From an uncultured Alphaproteobacteria bacterium (GTDB lineage Bacteria; Pseudomonadota; Alphaproteobacteria; Rs-D84): 64,000 bases of DNA. The stretch is from contig CALXXV010000003.1 in the NCBI GenBank assembly GCA_944392775.1, forward strand, positions 61,279-125,278. The letters are read 5' to 3'. The notes below the pieces were generated by a model that was not told where the DNA came from, did not search any database, and worked only from the letters and a program-made list of their open reading frames with translations. The position numbers were made by a program, and so were the translations under genes. This document shows, in pieces, positions 5,263 to 60,321 of this stretch (positions are counted from its first letter, which is position 1; each line of letters opens with the position of its first letter).

Positions 5263-5378
5263 TCTGTCGGTCGCCCCATTTTTATGCAAAATTGGACAAG
5301 ACTTGCCCTAATGATATTTTATAAAAAATATGTCCTGAAGTCACTTACGACTTCAGGACCCAAAACAAATCAATCTTA

Positions 5379-6236
5379 TTATTTCAACTTATTGTATTCT
5401 TCATCAGAAACCGGCTCTAGCCATTCATTAGAAGTGTCTTCTCCTTCTAACTCAAACGCCAAATGTGAGAACCAAGAATCTGGTGCCGCGCCATGCCAAT
5501 GCTTTACACCAGCCGGAATATGAATAACCGTACCCTCTTTTATCTCTACCGGCTTCTTACCCCATTCTTGATAGTAGCCATGTCCGCCAACACCAATCAA
5601 CATCTGACCACCACCAGTTGTAGCATGGTGTATATGCCAATTATTTCTGCACCCTGGTTCAAAAGTAACATTAGAAAACTTTACTTGTTCCGTTGAAACT
5701 GGTGCCAGATAACTTTGTCCAACAAAGTATTGTGCATATGCATCATTCGGCTCTCCAATAGGAAACATTATTGTTTTTGCATATTCTTCTTTGCCCATTT
5801 GTTGAGCCGTATCTGCATCTGTCCAAACATTTTTAGCAAGATTAAATACTGCCCACGCCTTTGGCCAACCAGCATAAAATGCATTATGCGTAATAATACC
5901 TGCAATTTCAGATTTTGTTACACCATTATTTTTTGCGGTTTGTAAATGATATGTCAGGGAAGAATCTGTTATACCTTGGCTCATCAAAGATACAACTGTC
6001 ACTATGCTTTTGGTTTTTAAATCTATCTTGCCGTTGTTCCAATTTTCACCGAACAAAATATCATCGTTATAGTGCGCAAATTCTGGTGCGAAATCCCCCA
6101 GTTGATTACGACCTGCGGTTTGAACTATTTTTTCACCCATATTATCTTCCTTTGGTTGAGCTGTAGAATTATCTGGTGCAGAATCACATGCACCTAATGT
6201 TGTAATCAACGCCAATGCTGTTAACGTTTTTCTCAT
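5379..6236 (-). CDS. Lipoprotein with an N-terminal carboxymuconolactone decarboxylase (AhpD-like) domain and a C-terminal cupin domain
   Basis: Lipobox LGAC. CMD-like region ...GWPKAWAV..., cupin HIHH...HWHG. Confidence 0.6.
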   Translation of the reverse strand: MRKTLTALALITTLGACDSAPDNSTAQPKEDNMGEKIVQTAGRNQLGDFAPEFAHYNDDILFGENWNNGKIDLKTKSIVTVVSLMSQGITDSSLTYHLQTAKNNGVTKSEIAGIITHNAFYAGWPKAWAVFNLAKNVWTDADTAQQMGKEEYAKTIMFPIGEPNDAYAQYFVGQSYLAPVSTEQVKFSNVTFEPGCRNNWHIHHATTGGGQMLIGVGGHGYYQEWGKKPVEIKEGTVIHIPAGVKHWHGAAPDSWFSHLAFELEGEDTSNEWLEPVSDEEYNKLK

Positions 6237-8231: not shown

Positions 8232-8859
8232 TTACCCCCCCTTGGTTACTTAATAGTGAAAATATTGTTTGATACGCAAAGTCATAAACTCTTTTGGTTG
8301 GAAATTTTATACCAGCAGAAGTCATCGCATCTTTTTGTTTTTGCGTAACATTTGCATAAGGATAAAGCCCAAACATAAATGGAAAGAATATATATATGAA
8401 CTTATTTATATCTGTCCTGCCCTTTTGCGGGAAGTATACCACCAATAAATGTTCTACGGTGTCCAAAGCACGCTTGTATTCTTGCTTAAACACTGTCAGT
8501 TCATCTAAAGAACAACTTTCTTCTAAATCGTATAAATTCATAGAAAGCAATTTTAATAGTACAGGACGATTTTCCAAGGTCTGAGCCAATTTACTTGAAA
8601 AATCTTTGACGCTTAGTTTTTTATATTTTTTTACAATGCGATCCATATCATCGCACCAAAAGGCATATTCTTCACGAAAGATTTCCAGAAAAATACTTTC
8701 TTTTGTCGTAAAATAATTATAAATAGAAGGTCTAGAAAAACTTGTATATTCACTGATTTCTTTAATTGTAATTTCTTTAAAAGACATAGTCTGATATAAC
8801 TCACGACAGGCATGTACTATTTCAGACTTTCTTTTATCGGTATGCGATAAAGATTCCAT
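8224..8859 (-). CDS. TetR-family transcriptional regulator
   Basis: HTH SRPSIYNYFTTKESIF. Start adjusted to MESLSH (RBS GAAAGGAAAGGGGA) so that the operators lie upstream. Confidence 0.75.
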   Translation of the reverse strand: MESLSHTDKRKSEIVHACRELYQTMSFKEITIKEISEYTSFSRPSIYNYFTTKESIFLEIFREEYAFWCDDMDRIVKKYKKLSVKDFSSKLAQTLENRPVLLKLLSMNLYDLEESCSLDELTVFKQEYKRALDTVEHLLVVYFPQKGRTDINKFIYIFFPFMFGLYPYANVTQKQKDAMTSAGIKFPTKRVYDFAYQTIFSLLSNQGGVNE

Positions 8860-13809: not shown

Positions 13810-15333
13810 ATGAAAATTATCATTCAGGCAGGCGGTCTGGGATCCAGAATGAAAGCGTTGACACACGTAAAACCCAAAAGTCTAATTTCTGCAAAATATA
13901 TGCCAATAATATTTCATCTGTTTAAGAAATATCCAAATGATGAATTCATAATAATCGGAGATTATAAATTTGACGTACTAGATAGATACTTATCTACGTT
14001 CGCCAAAAACGTAAATTATATGCTAATAAAATCAACAACAAAGGGAAATGCCGCAGGAATAAAAGAAGCGGTATCCTATATACCAGATAATGAACCGTTT
14101 ATGATAATATGGTCCGACATTATATTATCAGATACCTTTTATATAAATGAAATTACCAAGGGTTGCCAAGTAGGTTTAGTAGATTTCCATTGTTCTTGGA
14201 GCTTAAAAAATGGGACTTTAATAAACGAAAGCATCCCAGGTAAAGGTGTAGCCGGATTATATATTTTTGATAATAAAAGTTGGTTTGACGACTTTCCTAT
14301 AGAAGGTTCTTTTACAAATTGGCTGGCAGAAAAAAACATACCTTTAACCCCAATATCTTTAATGGGTAGCATAGATGTAGGAACTTTAGAAGCTTATAAC
14401 GAAATTTCAACGACCCTAAATCGCTGTAGACCTTATAATAAAATAGAATTTATCGACGGTAAAGTCGTAAAAACAGGTCTAACCAAAGAAGCGGAAAAAC
14501 TAATTGAACGAGAAATCGTGTGGTATAAAAAAATGGAAATGTGTGGTTTTGAGGCCATACCTAAAATATATAACACCAATCCACTAACTATGGAACTAAT
14601 TCGTGGAAAAAATATATTCCTTACAGAAATGGATGATGCAAATAAAAAAGAAACCATTCGTAAAATGGTTCATGCTTTACAAACTATGCATGGTTACGAA
14701 AAATCGTCCGCTTCTGCATGGGATTTATATACCGAATACTTAAAAAAAACAATTCACAGACTGCAAAGCATAATTTTCGCAATTCCTTTCGGAAACGAGC
14801 AATTTATAAAAATCAACGGAAAAAAATGTAAAAACATAATGTGCAATATAGATATTTTAAGACAGGCCGTCTTAAAAAATTTAATGACAACATATTATGG
14901 TCCAATTCATGGTGATTGCCAACTTACAAACACAATGATTGATGATTGTGGAAAAATATTCTTTATTGACGCACGTGGCTATTTCGGCAAAAGCCAAGTC
15001 TTAGGAGATGTTAGATATGATTGGGCAAAAATGTATTACGCCATACACGGTAATTTTGACCAATTTAACGTAAAAAGATTTACTCTTGATATTTCAGATC
15101 AAGAAGTTTCTTTCGATATCCATAGTGGAGGCTGGGAACATCTAACTGAATATTTCTTAAACCTTATACCCAAAGAAGAAGCAAGCGTAAAAGAAATAAA
15201 ACTTATACATGCAATAATATGGCTATCTTTAGCTTCGCATGCTTGGGAAGACTATGACTCTATGTGTATAGCGTTTTATAACGGAACCTTTTTATTTAAC
15301 GAATGGTTATCGGAGTACGAAAATGAACAGTAA
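13810..15333 (+). CDS. Bifunctional sugar-1-phosphate nucleotidyltransferase (N-terminal) fused to an APH/choline-kinase-fold sugar kinase (C-terminal). LicC-LicA-like or MurU-AmgK-like fusion
   Basis: N-terminal MKIIIQAGGLGSRM NTP-transferase motif. C-terminal Brenner motif IHGDCQLTN and FIDARGYFG. Confidence 0.65.
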   Translation: MKIIIQAGGLGSRMKALTHVKPKSLISAKYMPIIFHLFKKYPNDEFIIIGDYKFDVLDRYLSTFAKNVNYMLIKSTTKGNAAGIKEAVSYIPDNEPFMIIWSDIILSDTFYINEITKGCQVGLVDFHCSWSLKNGTLINESIPGKGVAGLYIFDNKSWFDDFPIEGSFTNWLAEKNIPLTPISLMGSIDVGTLEAYNEISTTLNRCRPYNKIEFIDGKVVKTGLTKEAEKLIEREIVWYKKMEMCGFEAIPKIYNTNPLTMELIRGKNIFLTEMDDANKKETIRKMVHALQTMHGYEKSSASAWDLYTEYLKKTIHRLQSIIFAIPFGNEQFIKINGKKCKNIMCNIDILRQAVLKNLMTTYYGPIHGDCQLTNTMIDDCGKIFFIDARGYFGKSQVLGDVRYDWAKMYYAIHGNFDQFNVKRFTLDISDQEVSFDIHSGGWEHLTEYFLNLIPKEEASVKEIKLIHAIIWLSLASHAWEDYDSMCIAFYNGTFLFNEWLSEYENEQ

Positions 15334-22304: not shown

Positions 22305-23327
22305 TTATTTTTGATATAAATTCCACAGGTAATCAAACTGCTTGGTAAAGGCTTTATCTTCTTGCTCAAAAAACATACAATTTTCTGCGTTTGATTCCGT
22401 CGCACTTTCTGTCCAGTTATAGCTACCGCTTTCTATTCTTTTTCCGTCAAATACAGCAAACTTATTATGCATTATCTTATGACCAGTATTTGTTATAACA
22501 GGAATTCCAGCTGATTCAATTTCATCAACCAACGAATACTTGCCTTTTGATTGCAACCTATCTGTAATTACTCTTATTTTTGCGCCACGTTCTTTGGCAT
22601 CTATTATCGCATCAACTATATTCTGGTTGGTGATAGAATATACTGCAATGTCTATCTTCTTTGCCTGATTGATTTCGGCAATTATATTATTTTCACATTC
22701 GGAACCTGGGGTAAAGTAAATTTCTATCCACTTTTTATCAGAAACAGCAGCGACAGGATCTTGTATATAATCGGTTTCAATCTCTTTATTATCCTTACCG
22801 AACAATTTTTTCCAGAAAGAAACTTTATCATCGTTTTTTATTTTCAACCCCAGCGTATCATATACCTGACGTTCAAAATCACTTCCTTTTTGTGCAATTA
22901 ACAATAAAATTTCTTCGTCGTCCTTTCTGGCGATTACCAAAGTATCACCGGCATACGCTGCCCGCATAACATCGTTTTTACGATAGTATAATTTATACTT
23001 ACGATTTCCATTTAATGATTTCGGTGTATAATAATACCAAGTTGTTTCACCCTCATGTTCAATTTCTTTATCACCTTTATACACAAACTGGGTATCATAA
23101 TAAACTTTATCAGCTCCAAGTACATTTATAAGTGCTTTAGTCCCTTGAATTTCTACGCTGGTACTATTATTGCCTTTATACAAAGAATCATTCTTTGCAA
23201 GCGTTTTTACCGCAATGGTTGAATATTTCGCTAAATCTGAAACATTAAAAGCCAAAACTTGTACGGGAATTAAAAACAAAAAAATTCCCATAGACAATTT
23301 CACGAAAAATCGTCCGACTATTTTCAT
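22305..23327 (-). CDS. Secreted phospholipase-D-superfamily protein with a single HKD motif (Nuc-like nuclease or PLD)
   Basis: HNKFAVFDG...GSYNWT HKD motif. N-terminal hydrophobic signal. Confidence 0.6.
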   Translation of the reverse strand: MKIVGRFFVKLSMGIFLFLIPVQVLAFNVSDLAKYSTIAVKTLAKNDSLYKGNNSTSVEIQGTKALINVLGADKVYYDTQFVYKGDKEIEHEGETTWYYYTPKSLNGNRKYKLYYRKNDVMRAAYAGDTLVIARKDDEEILLLIAQKGSDFERQVYDTLGLKIKNDDKVSFWKKLFGKDNKEIETDYIQDPVAAVSDKKWIEIYFTPGSECENNIIAEINQAKKIDIAVYSITNQNIVDAIIDAKERGAKIRVITDRLQSKGKYSLVDEIESAGIPVITNTGHKIMHNKFAVFDGKRIESGSYNWTESATESNAENCMFFEQEDKAFTKQFDYLWNLYQK

Positions 23328-23349
23328 ATACTGTATTATTTTACACAAA

Positions 23350-24228
23350 TCACATATTTTGCAAGTGCAAAAGAACTTGTTCGGACACCAAACGGACGCA
23401 ATCAGGTATTATGCCATTACCAAGTTGTTTTCTTATTCGTGACGACGATAAATCTTCGGGGAATACAAACGTATCCGGCAACCCCATTACTTTTTTCGTT
23501 TCCGATAGTGTTATTTCATGTTCAATGCCATCAACCAAATAAGACATCCAATTATAAGGTTCTTTATATCTTTTATGGTTATGCGCCGTTAATATCGTAT
23601 ATCCAACATCTCTATTACAAGTTTTGCAATTAAAAACATCATGCATAGTAAATTTTAATGGTACGGGGTCTGGAAACCTAAACGTACTGGTTTCCTGATT
23701 TTCACCCAGAAACCCAACCATAAAGACCCGTTGTCTTATTTGCGGTATGCCACAATCACAACCTTTGATTACTTTATAATGAAACGAATAACCGGCGTTT
23801 CTAAACAAGTCGTGAATTATGCGAAAACTTCTGCCTCCTTCTGCCGTCAGCAATCCTTTTACATTTTCTAAAATAAACGCTTTTGGCATGCATTGTTTTA
23901 TTATATTCAAGACATAAAAGAACATATTACCTTTATCGTCTTTGTCGTCTTTCAGACCTTTACGAAGTCCAGCCATAGAAAACGACTGGCACGGCGGACT
24001 GCCGACCAAGATATCAAATTCGGGAATATCACTTGGATTAAGCTCACGAATATCCGTTGGATAATTATTATTTCTAACGCAAGGCAGGTCTGGAAAGTTT
24101 GCAAGAAAGGTCTGACGGGCATATTTATCAATTTCGCACGATAAAACATTTTCCATTGGCAAGTCTTGCAGTCCCAGTTCCCAGCCACCGATACCAGAAA
24201 ACAAGTTTATATATTTATATTTTTGCAT
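23350..24228 (-). CDS. DNA (cytosine-5)-methyltransferase (orphan; no cognate REase evident)
   Basis: INLFSGIGGWELG, GSPPCQSFSMAG, ENVKGL. Start adjusted to MQKYKY with RBS AAGGAG. Confidence 0.8.
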   Translation of the reverse strand: MQKYKYINLFSGIGGWELGLQDLPMENVLSCEIDKYARQTFLANFPDLPCVRNNNYPTDIRELNPSDIPEFDILVGSPPCQSFSMAGLRKGLKDDKDDKGNMFFYVLNIIKQCMPKAFILENVKGLLTAEGGRSFRIIHDLFRNAGYSFHYKVIKGCDCGIPQIRQRVFMVGFLGENQETSTFRFPDPVPLKFTMHDVFNCKTCNRDVGYTILTAHNHKRYKEPYNWMSYLVDGIEHEITLSETKKVMGLPDTFVFPEDLSSSRIRKQLGNGIIPDCVRLVSEQVLLHLQNM

Positions 24229-24369
24229 GAAGGCTCCTTGAGAATAAAAAAGCCCGCTATAAAACGCAGGCAAAGAAAAAACGGGCGACAATGCCGTCCG
24301 TTTTATGCAAATCAGTATATCATATTTTTTATAAAAAATCAAACAAAAAACAAAAAACCGCAGAAGTCT

Positions 24370-24445
24370 GCGGCTTTATTCTGGTGGGGACACAGGGACT
24401 CGAACCCTGGACCCAATGATTAAAAGTCATTTGCTCTACCAACTG
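24370..24445 (-). tRNA. tRNA-Lys (anticodon TTT)
   Basis: Reverse complement folds as a cloverleaf: acceptor GGGGACA/TGTCCCC, anticodon stem AATGA/TCATT with loop CTTTTAA, T-arm CAGGG-TTCGAGT-CCCTG, CCA encoded. Confidence 0.8.
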
Positions 24446-24494
24446 AGCTATGTCCCCAAAACTGAACCGGAAACAAAATACTTTAAAAGTATCT
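24446..24494. terminator. Long near-perfect hairpin CTGAACCGGAAA...TTTCCG(T)GGTTCAG with an internal palindrome ATACTTTAAAAGTAT. Probable bidirectional terminator between the membrane-protein gene and tRNA-Lys
   Basis: Direct reading. Flanked by A/T runs. Confidence 0.45.
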
Positions 24495-37040: not shown

Positions 37041-38837
37041 ATGTCAAAGAAGATTTATGTGGACGCAGTCCACCCGGAGGAAACAAGGGTAGTAGTAGTA
37101 GATACTGCTACTAATCGCGTTTCTGATTTTGACGTTGAAACAACAACAAAACCGCAGATAAAAGGGAACATTTATCTGGCAAAAGTCATCCGCGTTGAAC
37201 CTTCCTTGCAGGCAGCGTTTGTTGATTATGGTTCTGGAAAAAACGGTTTTTTACCATTTTCAGAAATACATCCAGATTATTATCAAGTAACTCCTGAACA
37301 GAAAAAGAAATTATTAGAACTGGCTCATGCTAATATCGTTGACGACGATGAAGACCCAGATGATGAAAACGACGAAGTTGCAGAATATGACGATCAAAGT
37401 GCTGGTGAAGATAATAAAGAATTTACCAAACGCGCACATGAATTTAAAATTCAAGACGTTATAAAACCAAAACAAATTTTGCTGGTTCAGGGGGTAAAGG
37501 AAGAACGTGGTCAAAAAGGCGCATCAATGACAACTTATTTGTCATTAGCGGGGCGCTTTGCCGTTTTAATGCCAAATTCCAGAAAACGCAACAGTTATGG
37601 TATTTCTAAAAAGATTTCTGATAAAGCAGAACGCGCACGCTTGCGAGAAATACTACACGAACTTAAAATACCAAAAGGTATGACTGTCGTTTTGCGTACT
37701 GCTGCTTTTGAAGCAAATGCGGCAGAAATTGCAAAAGACTATGATTACTTGGTTAACTTATGGAATGAAATCCGTAAAACTACCTTGGAATCTGTTGCAC
37801 CTGTTACAATTCATACAGAAGACTCTTTATTACGTCGCGTAGTTCGTGATTTTCTGTCTGACAAAGAAGACGTTTTAGTTGTTCAAGGAGAAGAAGCTTT
37901 TGATGCAGCAAAACAATATTTTCAACAGATGTATGGACGCGCACCACGCAAACAGTTGATTCAATATAAAGACGCTGCAGTTCCTTTAATGGTAAAGGCA
38001 GGTGTTGAAAAACAATTAGAAGGTTTGCATGGTCCATATGTTCAATTACCTTCTGGGGGGTCTTTAGTTATAAACCAGACAGAAGCAATGGTGACAATCG
38101 ATGTAAACTCGTCCCGTGCTATCAAGGAAAAAGATATTGAACAAACTGCACTGAACACTAACTTAGAAGCAGCAGAAGAAATTGCACTGCAACTACGTCT
38201 TCGTGACTTGGCGGGTATTGTTGCTATCGACTTTATCGATATGGAAGAAGAAAAGAACAACCGCAAGTTAGAAATGAAAATGCGCGAAGTTATGAAACGT
38301 GACCGCGCACGTACACAAGTTGCAAAAATAAATAACTTTGGCGTTTTAATGCTATCACGTCAACGCTTGCGCAGTAGTTTTATGGAATCTTCATACGTTC
38401 AATGCCCACACTGCATGGGTGCAGGCGTAGTTCCAAGCATACAGACAGCGGCAATAATCTTATTCCGTCACTTGCAAGAAAAGTTACTGGCAAAAAGTGC
38501 ACAAAAAATCATCATGACAGTACCAACAGACGTTGCGATTTATCTTTTAAATCATAAGCGCGCTGAATTGGCAGCAATGGAAGCCGAATTTGAAACAGAA
38601 ATTGTTATAGTCGGTGATGACAGTTTGATGAATATAGACCAATATTCAATTCAACGCGTTGCACCAGAACAGAACAAGACAGAAGAATTATTGAGCGCAT
38701 ATGAACCATCTACAGATGTGAAAAAGAAAAATGCACAGCATGTAGAAGCAAAGAAAACGACAATGAACGCACCACGTCGTCGTCGTAAAAATAGTAACAA
38801 AAAGAAATCAAGCCTGTGGCATAAGCTGGTTGGTTAA
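37041..38837 (+). CDS. rne: Ribonuclease E/G catalytic protein (short form) with an acidic insertion in the S1 domain
   Basis: S1, DNase-I-like and Zn-link (CPHC) regions. DDDEDPDDENDE insertion. Confidence 0.85.
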   Translation: MSKKIYVDAVHPEETRVVVVDTATNRVSDFDVETTTKPQIKGNIYLAKVIRVEPSLQAAFVDYGSGKNGFLPFSEIHPDYYQVTPEQKKKLLELAHANIVDDDEDPDDENDEVAEYDDQSAGEDNKEFTKRAHEFKIQDVIKPKQILLVQGVKEERGQKGASMTTYLSLAGRFAVLMPNSRKRNSYGISKKISDKAERARLREILHELKIPKGMTVVLRTAAFEANAAEIAKDYDYLVNLWNEIRKTTLESVAPVTIHTEDSLLRRVVRDFLSDKEDVLVVQGEEAFDAAKQYFQQMYGRAPRKQLIQYKDAAVPLMVKAGVEKQLEGLHGPYVQLPSGGSLVINQTEAMVTIDVNSSRAIKEKDIEQTALNTNLEAAEEIALQLRLRDLAGIVAIDFIDMEEEKNNRKLEMKMREVMKRDRARTQVAKINNFGVLMLSRQRLRSSFMESSYVQCPHCMGAGVVPSIQTAAIILFRHLQEKLLAKSAQKIIMTVPTDVAIYLLNHKRAELAAMEAEFETEIVIVGDDSLMNIDQYSIQRVAPEQNKTEELLSAYEPSTDVKKKNAQHVEAKKTTMNAPRRRRKNSNKKKSSLWHKLVG

Positions 38838-38839
38838 TA

Positions 38840-38870
38840 AAAATCCCGTAGTTGCGGGATTTTTATTATT
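38840..38870 (+). terminator. Rho-independent terminator AAAAATCCCG-TAGTT-GCGGGATTTTTATT
   Basis: After the rne stop. Confidence 0.7.
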
Positions 38871-38887
38871 CTGGGGCGGATGACCGG
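38871..38887 (-). repeat. Exact 17-nt copy of the tRNA-His 3' end (CTGGGGCGGATGACCGG). attR-type direct repeat bounding the 2.4-kb islet
   Basis: Identical to 41262-41278; chance expectation for a 17-mer in 64 kb is about 1e-5. Confidence 0.75.
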
Positions 38888-39022
38888 GACACCTGCGCCA
38901 GGCAATTTTATTGTCTGGCTTCGTATTGTTCGCTTATCGCACCTAATGGTGCTGCTCACCACTCGTTCTCGTTCGACTTCCCTTCGTTCGGAAAGGAGTG
39001 CAAATATCGAGAAGAAAAATTT

Positions 39023-39649
39023 TTATGATTTTTTTAGTTTTTTCCATTTTATTTGCTGGTCTTTATATATGGGTTCTAAATTTTGTTTTATTTCTTCTCC
39101 GATATCAAAAATCCTTTTAGATATTGGATTGTTGATATCATTTGCAAAGGCTATTGCTTCGAATTCTAGATTGTTTGGATTTTCATACAGCATTTCAGAA
39201 GCTTGCCTGATTTTGCCCAAAAATGAGTACATTTCTACAAGTAATTTGTAAATATCTTCACCAAAATATATAAGGCATTTGTTAAGTATTTCAGAGAATT
39301 TTTCTATAGTTTCAGAACTTTTGTTTAATCTGTGTATTGGAAGTAAGCACGCCAATCTATCTTCATATATAGGCCATAACATAGAATTCGGAATATTTTG
39401 TTTTCTTGTGTTAACTTCGCATAACCAATTTCTTATTTCTGATAATTCCATGGGCGAAGTTACGTGGTTTCTGGCCGATATTATAATGTCTTGAAAATCC
39501 ATAACTATAATCATTATTTCCGATGCCAGCTCAATTTGCTTTTTGCCAAGATATTCTTTTCTCCACGCACGAATGGCACTTCCTGCCATAAAAGCCATTG
39601 CAAGTGTCCCAAGTGCAGTAAAAATGTCGGCAATACTACCTGTTGTCAT
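39023..39649 (-). CDS. Hypothetical protein with a single N-terminal TM helix. Partner of the HNH protein (putative immunity/regulatory component)
   Basis: ORF lies 15 nt downstream of the HNH gene on the same strand. Confidence 0.45.
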   Translation of the reverse strand: MTTGSIADIFTALGTLAMAFMAGSAIRAWRKEYLGKKQIELASEIMIIVMDFQDIIISARNHVTSPMELSEIRNWLCEVNTRKQNIPNSMLWPIYEDRLACLLPIHRLNKSSETIEKFSEILNKCLIYFGEDIYKLLVEMYSFLGKIRQASEMLYENPNNLEFEAIAFANDINNPISKRIFDIGEEIKQNLEPIYKDQQIKWKKLKKS

Positions 39650-39664
39650 ATCTAATTCTCTTTG

Positions 39665-40963
39665 TTAGTCCCACCACCATGATTTAGACGGTTTGTTAAC
39701 TAATTTTTTTAATCCGTCTAAGTCATTCGGAGAATCTAGTTTGTGTATCAATTTGTGACAGTTGGGACATAAAATAAGAAAATCATCGGCTTTAACTTCT
39801 CTGGTTTCACCTTCGGTTATTTCTGAATACGGGCTTTTATGGTGTGCTTCCAGTATGCTTTTCATGTGGGCTCCGTATTCTTCTGCAGGGTTTAATCCGC
39901 AAGCCATACATACATAACCAAAATGCTCTTTTATTGTCTGTATATCTTTGTTGCTAAGACGCCCTTCATATTTAGTGTGTTTGTCTATTCTTTTTTTCTT
40001 TTCTTTAAAAGTTACAATTTCATGAACAATTCCATCAAAATCGTTTTTTGAAATTTTATCATCAAATGATTTTACTTTATCTAACAGTTTTGTTTTTATT
40101 GAATCGTCTTCAAATTCACTTTCTGTGATTAGTTTATTTAAGTGCGCCTCTCTTGCAGGATAAATGTCTGTGCGATTAAATCTGTCACTTGCAAGTTTGC
40201 CTTTTTCTTCATCTCCAAAGTGTTCAATAAACAGTTTTTCTCTCTCTTCATCTGTCTTATCATTTGCCAAAACTTTCCAGCCCAATCCTTTGTCGTTTAG
40301 CGCTTTTAAGGCGTTGTCCATGTCTGCTGACGAAATATATGTGCTTGATACCGAATAGGCGCGCGAACCAGAGCCGCCGCCTCCTGAATAACTGCCAGAG
40401 TATCCGCCACCGCTGTCGCCGCTATCTCTACTACCGCCGCCAGAATGTCCACTTCCACCTGAATAACCGCCAGAACGATATCCGCTTGATGTATAACTGT
40501 TTGATGCTTTATGTGGTTTTGAACTGCTTTGTTCAATAAGTTTTTGTATTTTGGAATTAGATAAAGTTGTAAAATAGGGAGGTATATCTTTCAAAAAGTG
40601 AGTTATAAGTTTACCTGTTGCAATACATGACAAATAAAACAGCAAGTAAAATAACGCTGGGTGCAAGAAAATCATAGCTAAGCCAATCCAATCGCCTAGA
40701 AGTTGCTCGCCAAAAGCAGCAAAGATTACAATGAATATAATATAAAAAATAAATCCTGATATAACTGCGACCCAACTTACATTGTCATTCCACCATTCTA
40801 ATATAGATATTTGTTTTTCTAACTGTACTAGGTTCTCCCAATCGTCGGACGATTTTTCTCTTACAAAAAAGGTACTTTTATCTTTTTTAAACAGGTCTGA
40901 TTTCAGATTGTCTACAAAAAATGTTTTGGTAGCAGTAGTTATTTTATATCGTTCGTTTGACAT
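39665..40963 (-). CDS. Membrane-anchored HNH endonuclease-domain protein: two TM helices, a Gly/Ser/Tyr-rich low-complexity linker, a middle domain and a C-terminal HNH domain
   Basis: HNH motif CMACG...EAHHKSP...LILCPNCHKLIHK. TM segments VSWVAVISGFIFYIIFIVIFAAF and WIGLAMIFLHPALFYLLFYL. Linker GYRSGGYSGGSGHSGGGSRDSGDSGGGYSGSYSGGGGSGS. Confidence 0.6.
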   Translation of the reverse strand: MSNERYKITTATKTFFVDNLKSDLFKKDKSTFFVREKSSDDWENLVQLEKQISILEWWNDNVSWVAVISGFIFYIIFIVIFAAFGEQLLGDWIGLAMIFLHPALFYLLFYLSCIATGKLITHFLKDIPPYFTTLSNSKIQKLIEQSSSKPHKASNSYTSSGYRSGGYSGGSGHSGGGSRDSGDSGGGYSGSYSGGGGSGSRAYSVSSTYISSADMDNALKALNDKGLGWKVLANDKTDEEREKLFIEHFGDEEKGKLASDRFNRTDIYPAREAHLNKLITESEFEDDSIKTKLLDKVKSFDDKISKNDFDGIVHEIVTFKEKKKRIDKHTKYEGRLSNKDIQTIKEHFGYVCMACGLNPAEEYGAHMKSILEAHHKSPYSEITEGETREVKADDFLILCPNCHKLIHKLDSPNDLDGLKKLVNKPSKSWWWD

Positions 40964-41262
40964 CTGTTTGCCTTTTAACTGTTGAGATTATAGTCTTGCT
41001 TGTACGTAAAAACAACGATAAATATCATTATTTGTATTCGGTTTGAAAAAAGATAAAAAAGTCAATTTGTTCGATATCTTATAAAAATATATGGTTATAA
41101 AAATTAAGATTATTGGACTCGTATTATGCCGGGAAAAACCGCTCCATCGAAGTAGGTTGTAAATTGTGGCTCGTCTTACTGACTCGTATGCGAACCTCGG
41201 TTCGAACCCGACCCGTCCAAAGTTATAAAAAATACCGGCATAACGCCAGCATTTTTTATAAC

Positions 41263-41340
41263 TGGGGCGGATGACCGGATTCGAACCGGCGACATTTGGT
41301 ACCACAAACCAACGCTCTAACCAGCTGAGCTACATCCGCC
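41263..41340 (-). tRNA. tRNA-His (anticodon GTG) with encoded G-1 and CCA
   Basis: Cloverleaf: G-1 + GCGGATG acceptor, D-arm TAGCTCAGCTGGTTAGAGC, anticodon stem TTGGT/ACCAA with loop TTGTGGT, T-arm with TTCGAAT. Confidence 0.8.
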
Positions 41341-41356
41341 ATACTGAATTCTTAAT

Positions 41357-41432
41357 TGGTGGAGCTGATCAGACTCGAACTGACGACCCCTTGCATGCCA
41401 TGCAAGTGCTCTACCAACTGAGCTACAACCCC
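41357..41432 (-). tRNA. tRNA-Ala (anticodon GGC) with G3:U70
   Basis: Acceptor GGGGTTG/CAGCTCC (G3:U70), anticodon stem CTTGC/GCAAG with loop ATGGCAT, T-loop TTCGAGT, CCA encoded. Confidence 0.8.
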
Positions 41433-41513
41433 ATGCGAAGCATTATTCTATATTTCTTCTTGCAAAAAGTCAAATCAATTTGCTAACCTTTTTACACATA
41501 AGGAGACTAAAAT

Positions 41514-42074
41514 ATGGATTATCAATCTTTGAAAGCAGAAGTAGAACAAAAAACTCTACAAACATTAGAAGTTTTAAAAAATGAATACGCTGGTTTGCGT
41601 ACTGGTCGTGCTTCCATTCACCTTTTAGACGGTGTACGTGTACCTGTTTATGGATCTGATATGCCTTTAAATCAACTTGCAACAGTCGCGACACCAGATA
41701 ATCAAACTTTAACCGTTACTGTATGGGATATAAACAATGCCGGGGCAGTTGAAAAAGCAATTCGTGATTCTGGGTTGGGTTTAAACCCTATGACTGCAGG
41801 TGGTGTTATTCGCTTAAACATGCCGCCTCTTACAGAAGAACGTCGTAAAGAACTGACAAAAGTTGCGGGCAAATATGCAGAAGAAGCAAAAATTTCTATG
41901 CGCAACATCCGTCAAGATGCTATGGGTAAAATTAAACGCGCAGTCACAGATAAAGAAATTTCCGAAGACGATCAACGCAAATTTGAAGATGATTTACAGA
42001 AAGTTTTTGATGCAAAAAGTGCGGATGTTGATACACTTGCAAAACAAAAAGAAGCTGACATTATGTCTGTTTAA
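41514..42074 (+). CDS. frr: Ribosome recycling factor
   Basis: Full-length RRF; RBS AAGGAG. Confidence 0.85.
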   Translation: MDYQSLKAEVEQKTLQTLEVLKNEYAGLRTGRASIHLLDGVRVPVYGSDMPLNQLATVATPDNQTLTVTVWDINNAGAVEKAIRDSGLGLNPMTAGGVIRLNMPPLTEERRKELTKVAGKYAEEAKISMRNIRQDAMGKIKRAVTDKEISEDDQRKFEDDLQKVFDAKSADVDTLAKQKEADIMSV

Positions 42075-58825: not shown

Positions 58826-59472
58826 TCATCTTCTTGCGTTCTATAAATTGTATCCATTGTATGTGGCGTACCAATATAGATCATGGCCCCTGAAGGAGAA
58901 AGAATAAAATCTAATTCTCTCAGTTTTTCTCGTAAACTATCTCTCTTTTGGGCTGTATTACAAGTATTCGGGACCTCTACATCATCACAAATTATTAAAT
59001 CCGCCCGCATGCCTGTTATATTTCCATGAACACCTTGGCATATAACCGAAGGTTCCCTAATACCTATAGGCCGATTTACTGTAATCCTACCTTGCGCCCA
59101 TTCTTTTTTTGTTTGTGGAATCAAGTTGGAACATTTCGGATGATTTTCCAACACATGTCTTATATGAGAAACCATTCTTGAAGCCAAACCACTTTCAGCA
59201 GAAAGTATCAATATTCTAGTTTCTGGTCTAAGATATAATACGCATGCAGCAAATATACCAACAACAGTTGACTTTCCAGAATGTCTGAAAGACATCAAAA
59301 GCCCACGTTTTGGTTCAGTTGTCCAAACAGATACAAGAAAATCCATTATTGTTTTATGATGCAAAGGTGTAGAAAAGCCTAATAATTCATTCCATTCATC
59401 TAAAAAATTATAAAATTCCGTAATCATCACGAGTTTCATTCGGTGCAAGCTCGGTAATACTGCCATAATCAT
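58822..59472 (-). pseudogene. Large terminase subunit, N-terminal ATPase-domain fragment (first half of the split gene)
   Basis: Walker A FRHSGKST, Walker B LIICDDVE, motif III-like IGTPHT. Confidence 0.55.
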
Positions 59473-59956
59473 TTATAAGCTTCGGTAATGCATTTTCTAG
59501 AACAGAGACTAGATTGTTATATAATCCTAAAACACTTCCCCCAGAAAGTTTATCTTCTATTACCTGCAAATTATACTGCAAAAAAGCCATTACATTATCA
59601 TGGGTATTTTGCCATTCCGAAATATTTATATCTATTGAATGTAAATCACGAAAAGCTTCTAATAAAAAATTAAAATCAGCATTTAAACTTTCAGGATCTA
59701 TCTTAGATGTTGGTTGATAATCAACAACTCTATTTAAAGAGATCTGACGAAAGATATCTATTTTTACTCCTTGACTTGGAGCCTCTATGAAAACGACATT
59801 TCCTCCATCAAAATTTTCATTTGCAACAACAGAATAGTTTGAATTTTGTAAAATTTCTTCGTCCAAAGCCACTTTAATATCTTCATCCTGAAAGAACGGA
59901 AAAGCAAATAGGAATTCAGTAGTTACACCATCTCCTATATAAGATATTTTATACAT
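59408..59956 (-). CDS. Tail-fibre N-terminal (tail-attachment) domain protein, T7 gp17 N-terminus-like, lacking a distal receptor-binding region
   Basis: YKISYIGDGVTTEFLFAFPFFQDEDIKV resembles the T7 gp17 N-terminus (YQLDGSNRDFNIPFEYLARKFVVV). Confidence 0.4.
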   Translation of the reverse strand: MYKISYIGDGVTTEFLFAFPFFQDEDIKVALDEEILQNSNYSVVANENFDGGNVVFIEAPSQGVKIDIFRQISLNRVVDYQPTSKIDPESLNADFNFLLEAFRDLHSIDINISEWQNTHDNVMAFLQYNLQVIEDKLSGGSVLGLYNNLVSVLENALPKLINDYGSITELAPNETRDDYGIL

Positions 59957-59973
59957 AAGTCCCCCCTATTAAT

Positions 59974-60321
59974 TTAATCAATCAAATCTTCGAATTTGTC
60001 TAAGACAGATTGCAATAAATTTGGTTTGCTGACTTTTATTTTTTTTAATTTCTCTGAATTAACCTTACGTTTCGTTTCATATGGTTCTTCTACCTCTGAT
60101 TTAAGTCTTTTTAATACAGCACCTTCTGTCATTCCGCGTCCCGACATACCTGATGCACCATATTTAGCACGTTGGGTTGCTAAAGTTTTTTTTACAAGAT
60201 TAGTTTTTTCTTTTTCGTCTGCTGCCATATCTGCGATAATTTTTTGTCGCTCTGTTTCTGCTTCTTTTTTTGCATTTTTATAATTTAAAACATCTGTTAC
60301 ATCTGACACTAACTGTCCCAT
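59974..60321 (-). CDS. Hypothetical phage-module protein (basic, coiled-coil)
   Basis: ORF only. Confidence 0.3.
   Translation of the reverse strand: MGQLVSDVTDVLNYKNAKKEAETERQKIIADMAADEKEKTNLVKKTLATQRAKYGASGMSGRGMTEGAVLKRLKSEVEEPYETKRKVNSEKLKKIKVSKPNLLQSVLDKFEDLID

Follow-up and report, generated by a model that had tools for sequence, protein, structure and literature searches.

The segment examined here lies between an RNase E/G (rne) gene and a tRNA-His gene, within a stretch of 64,000 nucleotides of alphaproteobacterial DNA (the window); its features are collected in Table 1. The host is an uncultured, Candidatus Enterousia-like gut alphaproteobacterium of the order Rs-D84. The segment holds two genes, coding for a protein of 432 aa (protein A) and, 15 nt downstream, for one of 208 aa (partner B). 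Both had been picked out in an earlier note on this DNA and both are conserved, with 73 clusters of homologues for protein A and 32 for partner B, or 159 when a profile was used. At the two borders stands an exact 17-nt repeat, CTGGGGCGGATGACCGG, made up of the 3′ strand of the T-stem, the 3′ strand of the acceptor stem, the discriminator, CCA and one more base. The near copy belongs to an intact tRNA-His, on which ARAGORN and Rfam agree, and the distal copy starts 2 nt past the terminator hairpin of the RNase E/G gene. No third copy was found elsewhere in the window even when 2 mismatches were allowed (0 expected, from 100 shuffles). In these respects the earlier note was right. Known RNAs of the tmRNA or tRNA-like kind were also sought in 41100-41230 and in the gene-less units described below, where Rfam gave tRNA-His, tRNA-Ala and sub-threshold noise only; the high folding z-scores of the non-coding parts are due to terminator hairpins.

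Table 1. Features of the tRNA-His locus (positions in the window)
Feature	Positions	Strand	Remarks
RNase E/G gene	37041-38837		Terminator hairpin at its end is the left chromosomal flank
RNase E/G terminator hairpin	38835-38868	+	Perfect 14-nt inverted repeat (I8); kept in L010, L011, L016
Distal direct repeat, displaced tRNA-His 3′ end (attR-type, outer unit)	38871-38887	.	Exact 17-mer
Unit-2 att scar (gene-less), distal arm	38888-38987	.	Matched in L011
TCG core, distal cassette junction	38988-38990	.	Exact overlap of L011 alignment blocks
Integrase-less gene cassette, 2.18 kb	38991-41170	-	Promoter, HNH gene, partner gene, conserved ends
Cassette end motif TCTCGATATTTGCAC	38998-39012	-	Conserved across loci
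Partner B, 208 aa	39023-39649	-	N-terminal moderately hydrophobic helix and cytoplasmic four-helix bundle (predicted)
Protein A, 432 aa	39665-40963	-	Beta domain split by 2 TM helices; G/S/Y linker; helical domain; HNH nuclease
Probable cassette promoter	40987-41015	-	-35 TTGTTT, 17-nt spacer, -10 TATAAT; read from sequence
Proximal cassette end GCCACAATTTACAACC	41155-41170	-	tRNA-Asn CCA and trailer-like sequence
TCG core (41171-41173) and degenerate tRNA-Asn-like 3′ fragment	41171-41186	-	Cassette pseudo-attachment site
Unit-2 proximal arm, with terminator hairpin after tRNA-His	41187-41261	-	19-nt inverted repeat 41221-41263
Proximal direct repeat (attL-type), within intact tRNA-His	41262-41278	.	
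tRNA-His(gtg)	41263-41339	-	Intact; outer integration target; ARAGORN, Rfam 68.9 bits
tRNA-Ala(ggc)	41357-41432	-	Called by ARAGORN and Rfam

What kind of protein is protein A? In the structure model its N-terminal beta domain is interrupted by a transmembrane hairpin, and the two helices of this hairpin, already proposed in the earlier note, are backed by hydropathy as well as by the model. The C-terminal half is the best conserved part of the protein and the N-terminus is variable. The assignment of a C-terminal HNH nuclease domain is correct, although it is weak in Pfam (19.8 bits, under the cutoff of 21.4). There is a PHROG HNH match at 3e-5, and residues C352, C355, H374, H375, C399, C402, H403 and H407 are invariant in 67 sequences, providing the Cys4 zinc site and the catalytic His of the HNH (beta-beta-alpha-metal) superfamily. 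This domain is nearest to the HNH domains of type IV restriction enzymes and of Cap5. No PADLOC model rose above noise for protein A; the best match, to mREase_IV (0.0015), covered the HNH motif only. A 325-aa Ruegeria protein of McrB-N/DUF3578-HNH layout is ~32% identical to protein A over residues 223-423, and McrA matched at 0.87. Like the HNH-type type IV enzymes (McrB-N/DUF3578-HNH, McrA), the nearest sequence relatives of its nuclease module, protein A would be a single-polypeptide nuclease. Unlike them, it has no modified-DNA reader, since its N-terminal and middle domains gave no match to SRA, McrB-N/DUF3578 or SBD, and it has a family-specific beta domain, the two-helix hairpin, a disordered linker and a helical domain of no known family. 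From the CBASS effector Cap5 (SAVED-HNH) it differs in having neither a SAVED domain nor a cyclase gene beside it and in being membrane-anchored. Profile searches of the PDB with protein A, its middle domain and partner B gave nothing credible, and the isolated N-terminal and middle domains of family members yielded only a weak DUF2207_C match in Pfam, in 4 of 14. Fusion of the N-terminal module to other effectors was not borne out, as all 7 matches of an exhaustive phmmer search fell within the family. IMG/VR contained no relative of protein A and a single 40-residue fragment matching partner B, while a phage collection matched at the level of the HNH motif only. A limited full-text search of the literature did not find a membrane-anchored HNH system of this design. 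From the charge distribution and the lack of a signal peptide, both the HNH domain and partner B are predicted to face the cytoplasm.

The single transmembrane helix attributed to partner B in the earlier note is, by hydropathy, only moderately hydrophobic. Partner B matched no PADLOC model, and the DUF4760 label that a distant relative bears in UniRef was not reproduced with Pfam. At 59-88% identity its relatives trail type I R-M, type II R-M (REase_II) and PDC-S41 genes, where protein A is missing, and in the type I R-M operon the gene lies between hsdM and hsdS, its codons overlapping theirs. The prrC gene likewise sits inside a type I R-M operon (the E. coli prr locus), PrrC and RloC being restriction-linked accessories. 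Partner B shares that position with prrC and is appended to other restriction-type enzymes too; however, it has no similarity to PrrC/RloC in sequence or fold and neither an ATPase nor an anticodon-nuclease domain; its 208 aa make up a four-helix bundle preceded by a hydrophobic helix. These contexts suggest that partner B is a portable four-helix-bundle accessory, probably membrane-associated, that probably has a regulatory, localising or back-up effector role.

The earlier note took the 17-nt repeats to bound the gene islet. The repeats are real, but what they delimit is a gene-less att scar of ~200 nt; the gene cassette is nested inside it and the islet is composite. This scar occurs alone, free of the cassette, in another strain (L011; loci of the comparison are numbered with L), whose positions 5537-5661 are 93.7% identical to 38866-38990 of the window and are joined directly to the proximal arm. 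That arm is 99% identical in L011, and likewise in L016 from 41198 on. Extended to 20 nt, the tRNA-His repeat also flanks gene-less units in L010 and L011. L011 lacks exactly the cassette as a single block, with the flanking alignment blocks overlapping by 3 nt. The cassette itself is 86% identical to that of L001, which sits in tRNA-Asn, and the homology to L001 stops at the distal TCG core, which equals CGA of the tRNA-Asn repeat. The end motif TCTCGATATTTGCAC is exact in L001-L003, L008, L009 and L066, with a tRNA-Asn 3′ fragment 2 nt beyond it, and in L081-L083; it is absent from the remainder of the 96 loci. At the other end, GCCACAATTTACAACC matches GCCACAGTTTACAACC of L001, located straight after the tRNA-Asn, and the adjoining degenerate fragment, which aligns with the T-arm and acceptor of that tRNA (L001 6768-6788), is kept in the cassette-free L011. 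In L001, L008, L009 and L066 the cassette sits in a genuine tRNA-Asn with tRNA-Asn repeats of 12-15 nt on its flanks, the native trailer of the tRNA is pushed behind the cassette and DNA homology ends at the junctions. In the window the repeats directly flanking the cassette have 3 nt in common only. The A proteins of L001 and L008 are only ~45% identical, yet at the cassette end a non-coding stretch of about 80 nt reaches ~90% identity, pointing to a conserved site that acts in cis or to recent exchange. The cassette probably has its own promoter, in a block identical in L001; a consensus scan did not list it because its -35 element is weak.

At least four alleles exist at the tRNA-His site across contigs encoding a 100% identical Frr: unit-1 only in L010, unit-1 and an empty unit-2 in L011, an LRR gene with the distal repeat missing in L016, and the cassette in the window, L081 and L082 (it is also found in L083). 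So many alleles beside an identical Frr mark the site as an active integration hot spot, and, as read from the sequences, the tRNA-His 3′ end beside frr is a site-specific one. The site-specific integration proposed in the earlier note is in this way borne out by the repeat, the intact tRNA and the polymorphism among strains. The empty-site comparison suggested there succeeded in part: presence/absence polymorphism was found among close relatives, but a virgin attB, the rne terminator abutting tRNA-His, was not, and the cassette-free alleles keep scars of 137-200 nt. In principle L011 might be a deletion derivative instead of an unoccupied or excised site; the match of its gap to the cassette ends at tRNA-Asn argues against this. 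The earlier note also held that the same genes at another locus without the repeat would speak against its reading. The second locus of the relatives is flanked by a tRNA 3′ repeat as well, that of tRNA-Asn, so this objection does not arise. As is usual for genomic islands, the locus is variable among close relatives and has a direct repeat at its far border and an intact tRNA at its near border; an integrase inside the island is the feature it lacks, as it has two ORFs only, neither of them a recombinase.

Could a recombinase lie close by? As the earlier note stated for the segment, none was found in the islet, nor was one found in the whole window, by phmmer searches that used the integrase of L004 and the resolvase of L008 as queries or by motif scan, and the marginal ORFs of the window had no recombinase match in Pfam. 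The minimal islets (window, L001, L008, L009, L066) are all recombinase-free. In L004, related genes have as neighbours an integrase (Arm-DNA-bind_3, Phage_int_M and Phage_integrase domains) and HTH_17, and in L006 the neighbour is an integrase fragment; conjugation or relaxase genes were seen in no locus. Since islet and window have no recombinase, mobilisation in trans, as in a cis-mobilizable element (CIME), is the best reading and agrees with the undescribed, trans-mobilised module that the earlier note put forward as a candidate. A tRNA-targeting tyrosine integrase encoded elsewhere is most likely responsible. CIMEs keep attL and attR, have lost integration and transfer genes, and accrete in tandem at tRNA att sites (PMC5704250). 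The present locus is likewise bounded by attL- and attR-type tRNA 3′-end repeats, has no integration or transfer genes and is arranged in tandem and nested fashion with other att-flanked units at one site. It differs in that the cassette is far smaller (2.2 kb, with neighbouring units of 137-200 nt), shows no sign of ICE/IME descent and has inner ends of tRNA-Asn type within an outer unit of tRNA-His type. The tycheposons of Prochlorococcus are defined by a tRNA-associated tyrosine or large serine recombinase that they encode themselves, mostly along with a replication module (bioRxiv 10.1101/2020.12.28.424599), neither of which is present in the islet or window. Otherwise their islands are similar, with a streamlined genome, cargo units piled at tRNA genes with partial tRNAs between, degenerate remnants, subpopulations with or without a unit and some defence-related cargo. 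Sedentary chromosomal integrons hold tiny cassettes with streamlined defence genes and a recombinase encoded outside them (bioRxiv 10.1101/2024.07.02.601686). Our cassette resembles these in its very small size and, probably, in its defence genes and its outside recombinase; however, its borders are tRNA 3′ ends where integron cassettes have attC hairpins, there is no IntI and it probably has a promoter of its own.

Are the two genes a toxin and its immunity protein, of the colicin-DNase/Im-like or polymorphic-toxin type and held together by addiction, as the earlier note supposed? A C-terminal DNase domain followed closely by a small gene fits this, and the Gly/Ser-rich disordered segment of protein A is reminiscent of colicin translocation domains, which contain such segments. 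However, partner B is precisely deleted in L001-L003, with a deletion scar in L001, whereas protein A is intact in 11 contigs and is under purifying selection (dN/dS 0.21); in L004, L006, L023, L024, L062 and L065 its neighbours differ or are missing. Partner B for its part follows the unrelated restriction-type systems named above. Conservation at the C-terminus with a variable N-terminus is the reverse of polymorphic toxins, Pfam, NCBIfam and PDB gave no colicin, pyocin or immunity match, and neither a signal peptide nor a gene for secretion or lysis is present. Judging from these comparisons, partner B is not an immunity protein, and we give the toxin-immunity pairing very little credence. 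It is scarcely credible, either, that protein A cleaves tRNA 3′ ends on its own and so drives the insertion of its cassette in a homing-like manner. Such a process would need no integrase, in keeping with the recombinase-free minimal islets, with protein A as the sole constant gene of the cassette and with the two kinds of target, tRNA-Asn and the pseudo-site. Yet flanking duplications of tRNA 3′ ends with a regenerated tRNA are a hallmark of tyrosine integrases and homing leaves no duplication, so the duplications of 12-17 nt seen here point to att recombination; moreover, a membrane-tethered nuclease is poorly suited to chromosomal homing, other family members lie in islands with an integrase or its remnants, and some (L021, L023) adjoin no tRNA.

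Perhaps the islet is a static remnant, a decayed larger tRNA-His island that no longer moves, whose alleles arose by ordinary deletion and homologous recombination and whose cargo is hitch-hiking or decaying. The missing integrase, the gene-less scars of L010 and L011, which show that decay happens, the loss of the distal repeat in L016 and the 3 nt shared by the cassette junctions all accord with this. Against it, both A and B are intact and under purifying selection, the L011 gap agrees to the base with the cassette ends that four other genomes show, independently, at tRNA-Asn, and the non-coding end is far better conserved between L001 and L008 than the A proteins. We regard immobility as unlikely, though deserving some weight. 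As to function, EndA, a membrane-bound beta-beta-alpha-metal nuclease, acts in DNA uptake, and protein A might similarly be a housekeeping nuclease for DNA scavenging or competence-type processing at the membrane instead of defence. Rs-D84 genomes are <1 Mb and many biosynthetic pathways are missing from them (PMC12306168), so nucleotide scavenging would be useful to these bacteria. However, the gene for protein A is strain-variable and cassette-borne, not core, it is located in islands rich in R-M and further defence genes, its partner is common to restriction systems, and the predicted topology places the HNH domain in the cytoplasm. A housekeeping or uptake role seems quite improbable.

We favour an account in which an outer unit entered the tRNA-His 3′ end and left its att scar, and a cassette that normally inserts at the tRNA-Asn 3′ end came to lie in the degenerate tRNA-Asn-like site with its 3-nt TCG core, moved in trans by the outside integrase. 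Protein A would be an HNH DNase on the cytoplasmic side of the inner membrane, anchored there by the two-helix hairpin and a flexible linker of ~60 residues; it may cut foreign DNA at or near the membrane under the control of the N-terminal beta/TM module. Partner B would be an accessory that also accompanies restriction systems of types I and II and the PDC-S41 helicase. The domain type and the neighbourhood, in which PDC-S14, MTase_II, a PtuA-like ATPase and a PLD nuclease occur, argue that the cargo is probably a defence module, not described before, that acts against phages or plasmids. Taken whole, from hot spot and scar to trans-mobile cassette, membrane-tethered nuclease and accessory, this account seems to us somewhat better than an even chance. 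A bolder and rather doubtful version is that A and B form an undescribed membrane-associated restriction, in which the tethered DNase destroys incoming foreign DNA and partner B, as a portable membrane module, joins restriction enzymes of otherwise unrelated kinds (type I, type II, PDC-S41, 2TM-HNH) and gates them, backs them up or fixes their location, on a recombinase-less cassette that borrows tRNA-specific integrases, integron-like but with tRNA ends.

What would this mean, if confirmed? The cassette would carry a new defence module of one or two proteins with a membrane-tethered nuclease at its core, a design missing from current defence catalogues. Partner B would be a small accessory family common to several classes of restriction system and hence an unrecognised common layer of localisation, regulation or back-up killing. 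Finally, bacteria with genomes of <1 Mb would be swapping defence genes on recombinase-less 2-kb cassettes that stack and nest at tRNA ends.

The two genes at the tRNA-His locus lie between two copies of the 17-nt repeat CTGGGGCGGATGACCGG, which spans the 3' strands of the T stem and the acceptor, the discriminator, CCA and one further base. No other copy was found in the window with 2 mismatches permitted, the pair is not expected there by chance, and it was the sole exact repeat family in the repeat scan. The tRNA-His is intact and follows a tRNA-Ala(ggc) that ARAGORN and Rfam also call, and the distal repeat copy begins 2 nt past the terminator hairpin of the RNase E/G-family gene (rne). 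G+C of the segment is slightly low, 0.28-0.37 versus about 0.38 in the surroundings. An earlier note had described the exact repeat and, within it, ORFs for a membrane-anchored HNH protein (A) and, 15 nt downstream, its partner (B); these observations hold, and its interpretation is supported only in part.

Features of the tRNA-His locus, its alleles, protein A and the settings of B without A
Feature	Position	Strand	Basis or content
rne	37041-38837
Distal repeat copy	38871-38887
B ORF, 208 aa	39023-39649	minus	ORF call
A ORF, 432 aa	39665-40963	minus	ORF call
Cassette promoter (probable)	41015-40987	minus	TTGTTT-17 nt-TATAAT, read from sequence; conserved in L001
Proximal repeat copy	41262-41278
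tRNA-His(gtg)	41263-41339	minus	ARAGORN and Rfam agree; 68.9 bits
Allele of window, L081, L082			rne terminator, repeat, unit-2 distal arm, cassette, unit-2 proximal arm, tRNA-His
Allele of L010			rne terminator, 20-nt repeat copy, 137-nt gene-less unit-1, tRNA-His
Allele of L011			rne terminator, repeat, unit-1, repeat, gene-less unit-2 (~200 nt), tRNA-His
Allele of L016	L016 4928-5684		unrelated 215-aa LRR-like ORF; distal repeat absent
A, beta domain	residues 6-52		AlphaFold model
A, TM hairpin of two long helices	residues 54-124		model; hydropathy supports 60-121
A, extra strand and helix	residues 130-148		model
A, disordered linker	residues 150-207		19 Ser, 19 Gly and 6 Tyr in 58 residues
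A, helical middle domain	residues 212-333		model
A, HNH domain	residues 338-422		model
B in L085			between hsdM and hsdS of a type I R-M operon, codons overlap
B in L086, L093-L095			16 nt past a Schlafen-like helicase, full-length PDC-S41 match (4e-257)
B in L090-L092			after an MTase-MTase-REase_II operon (REase_II 4e-67)
B in L087			adjoins a different, 236-aa HNH protein
B in L088			after a 71-aa and 192-aa pair without assigned family, tRNA-Asn hot spot

We compared contigs whose Frr protein is identical to that of the window, which should come from one species or from strains that hardly differ, and at least four alleles were present at the tRNA-His site. By blastn, L011 5537-5661 matches window 38866-38990 (93.7% identity) and L011 5659-6010 matches window 41171-41523 (99.2%); the two blocks share a 3-nt overlap, so that L011 is without exactly window 38991-41170. 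L011 has a single copy of the triplet TCG, and in the window a copy stands at either side of this block. Neither unit-1 nor unit-2, the gene-less tRNA-His scars, matched an Rfam family. Each has a strong terminator hairpin right after the tRNA end and a tRNA fragment at its finish, the structure expected if an integrative element had lost its interior and its two arms had been joined. Units of this gene-less kind, 137-310 nt long and bordered by repeats of a tRNA-His or tRNA-Trp 3' end, were seen at L010 2887-3023, L011 5395-5750 and L024 3276-3597; all open with a terminator hairpin, have no Rfam match and resemble att arms joined after an element was gutted. In L016, also with identical Frr, the ORF replaces the site content; window sequence is shared up to 38869 and from 41198, and the distal tRNA-His repeat is thus missing. 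The clean empty site for which the earlier note had proposed a search, the rne terminator abutting tRNA-His, was not found among related contigs.

Where else does such a unit occur? In other uncultured Alphaproteobacteria, homologues of A likewise sit right behind the 3' end of a co-oriented tRNA gene, but this tRNA is a different one. In L001-L003, L008, L009 and L066 the A gene begins 180-215 nt past tRNA-Asn(gtt), beside adh_short and ligA, and the last 12-15 nt of the tRNA (TTGCCCGAGCCACAG) are repeated just past the cassette; behind this repeat the trailer and terminator native to tRNA-Asn evidently follow. Where window and L001 DNA are homologous, they are 86% identical. This homology starts within the T arm of tRNA-Asn (L001 6768 = window 41186), covers the A gene, picks up again over the last ~50 nt and ends in the tRNA-Asn repeat, at its CGA (L001 8407 = window 38988). 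The end motif TCTCGATATTTGCAC is exact at all these cassette loci and absent elsewhere among the 96 loci compared. The block missing from L011 is therefore the unit found in genuine tRNA-Asn genes of relatives. CTGGGGCGGATGACCGG, the islet border of the earlier note, thus borders an outer scar, and the genes form part of a nested 2.18-kb cassette. In the window the cassette sits at a degenerate tRNA-Asn-like sequence, GAGTCAGTAAGACGA (41171-41186), within unit-2, and joining both junctions at the TCG/CGA core would yield the L011 junction with 1 mismatch. The cassette probably has its own promoter, one that a consensus promoter scan did not list. In L009 a 5.5-kb defence island ends with another, complete copy of tRNA-Asn, directly preceded by a 39-residue B-like N-terminal fragment (14379-14585).

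As had been claimed for the bounded segment, no recombinase was found in the islet, nor was any found across the 64-kb window. Recombination at att sites by a tyrosine integrase has as its established hallmark a duplicated tRNA 3' end beside a regenerated tRNA, and mobilisation in trans, also the earlier proposal, is therefore the best reading. Other A-family loci are larger islands containing a recombinase. In L004 (tRNA-Met) the A-family gene is close to an integrase whose domains, Arm-DNA-bind_3, Phage_int_M and Phage_integrase, are a set typical of P4-family integrases, and to an HTH_17 gene. L006 (1-5772), an island next to the same tRNA-His/tRNA-Ala/frr locus of a distant relative, retains an HTH_17 gene and, of an integrase, a fragment of 88 aa. 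Internal direct repeats of 265 and 227 nt, containing tRNA-Asn 5'-like pieces on the opposite strand, flank the HNH and bPH_2 pair of this island. Just past the tRNA-Met of L004, 229-nt direct repeats (5320-5555 and 8314-8549, 91% identical) enclose a Bro-N gene and the HNH gene, a layout that points to related units in tandem and not to a short duplication of att. Window 59408-60321 may be a phage remnant: a 182-aa ORF there has a weak N-terminal Phage_T7_tail match (4e-4), and an adjoining 115-aa ORF shows marginal similarity to the L004 integrase (E 0.013) and no Pfam match. The locus also parallels tycheposon islands in that the genome is streamlined, units are stacked with partial tRNAs between them and some remnants are degenerate, but no tycheposon hallmark gene is present.

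Clustering at 90% identity gives 73 clusters for the A family, every one of metagenome or MAG origin, under the labels Rickettsiales, Alphaproteobacteria or Candidatus Enterousia; the lineage is the order Rs-D84, with genomes below 1 Mb (PMC12306168). The AlphaFold model of A (mean pLDDT 77) is confident except in the linker. At least one hydrophobic window was found in 62 of 62 full-length members. TM segment and linker are variable, and the conserved part is the C-terminal half. C352, C355, H374, H375, C399, C402, H403 and H407 are invariant across 67 sequences, as is an H-x-KYEGRL motif immediately ahead of the HNH domain. Against Pfam HNH the protein scores 19.8 bits, just below the 21.4 cutoff, and PHROG HNH families match down to 3e-5; the best PADLOC match, a type IV restriction enzyme model (0.0015), covers the HNH motif only. 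A 325-aa Ruegeria protein with no TM segment aligns to residues 223-423, and its N-terminus, as read from the sequence, may be McrB-N/DUF3578-like. PDB searches by fold and by sequence gave no full-length match, and the N-terminal 150 residues found only their own family among 1.84 billion representatives. With three K/R after TM2, an acidic loop between the helices and no signal peptide, both ends are predicted to be cytoplasmic.

What, then, is the cassette for? In relatives it lies at the tRNA-proximal edge of defence islands with PDC-S14 fragments, three type II methyltransferases, a PtuA-like ATPase with a Toprim region, a PLD nuclease, a Gp49/HI1420 pair and IceA. Because of this setting, a partner shared with restriction systems, a restriction/effector-type nuclease and a strain-variable gene, defence is the best functional reading. 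A would be a membrane-tethered DNase, its ~60-residue linker reaching DNA near the membrane, gated by the N-terminal beta/TM module, and B an optional regulator, localiser or back-up effector. That the cassette is a static remnant seems doubtful, and a scavenging or uptake nuclease improbable. It is highly unlikely that A is a self-mobilising, homing-like HNH protein, as homing leaves no target duplication and A is membrane-anchored. A second restriction-type module lies directly 3' of tRNA-Lys(ttt) (24382-24457, minus). Behind the terminator that follows this tRNA, genes on the same strand encode a C5 DNA methylase (23350-24342) and then a nuclease of the PLD family, DrmC-like (22305-23348); no tRNA-Lys 3' repeat was seen at the far end of this module (22305-24457).

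The toxin-immunity pair of the earlier note is quite improbable, since A persists without B and B follows unrelated restriction systems. In L001-L003 only the final ~25 nt of a B gene remain, between the stop codon of the HNH gene and the normal cassette end, and B has thus been lost by a clean deletion; the A gene of this type is still full length in 11 contigs, with a dN/dS of 0.21 against window A. Among other A-family loci without B, the L006 gene is accompanied by one for a bPH_2 protein, that of L065 by one for an unrelated 381-aa protein, and in L062, L063 and L067 a 170-aa TM protein is encoded upstream; L004 has no substitute. Homologues of B without A (59-88% identity to window B) stand in the varied settings listed in the table, so B behaves as a portable add-on to defence enzymes that target DNA and is most likely not an immunity protein. 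Its position recalls that of prrC and other restriction-linked genes in type I R-M operons; this likeness is positional only, with no homology. The first ~40 residues of B (hydrophobic helix and RAWRKE motif; window 39530-39649, L008 8216-8335) are ~90% identical between the window and L008, L009 and L066, the remainder only ~43%; either the gene is a mosaic or this helix is under strong constraint, even though the TM helices of A vary. The PADLOC candidate system PDC-S41, a Schlafen-like helicase (L086 2991-4985, L093 1991-3985), has a NUDIX gene before it and B after it, and may be a three-gene system in this lineage.

Integration into tRNA genes, integrase-less att-flanked elements and HNH effectors are already known. 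What appears to be new is the domain architecture of A, absent from PADLOC and PDB, the B family with the variety of systems to which it attaches, and the very small cassette with its nested two-specificity layout, tRNA-Asn ends within a tRNA-His scar, as well as its occurrence in genomes below 1 Mb.
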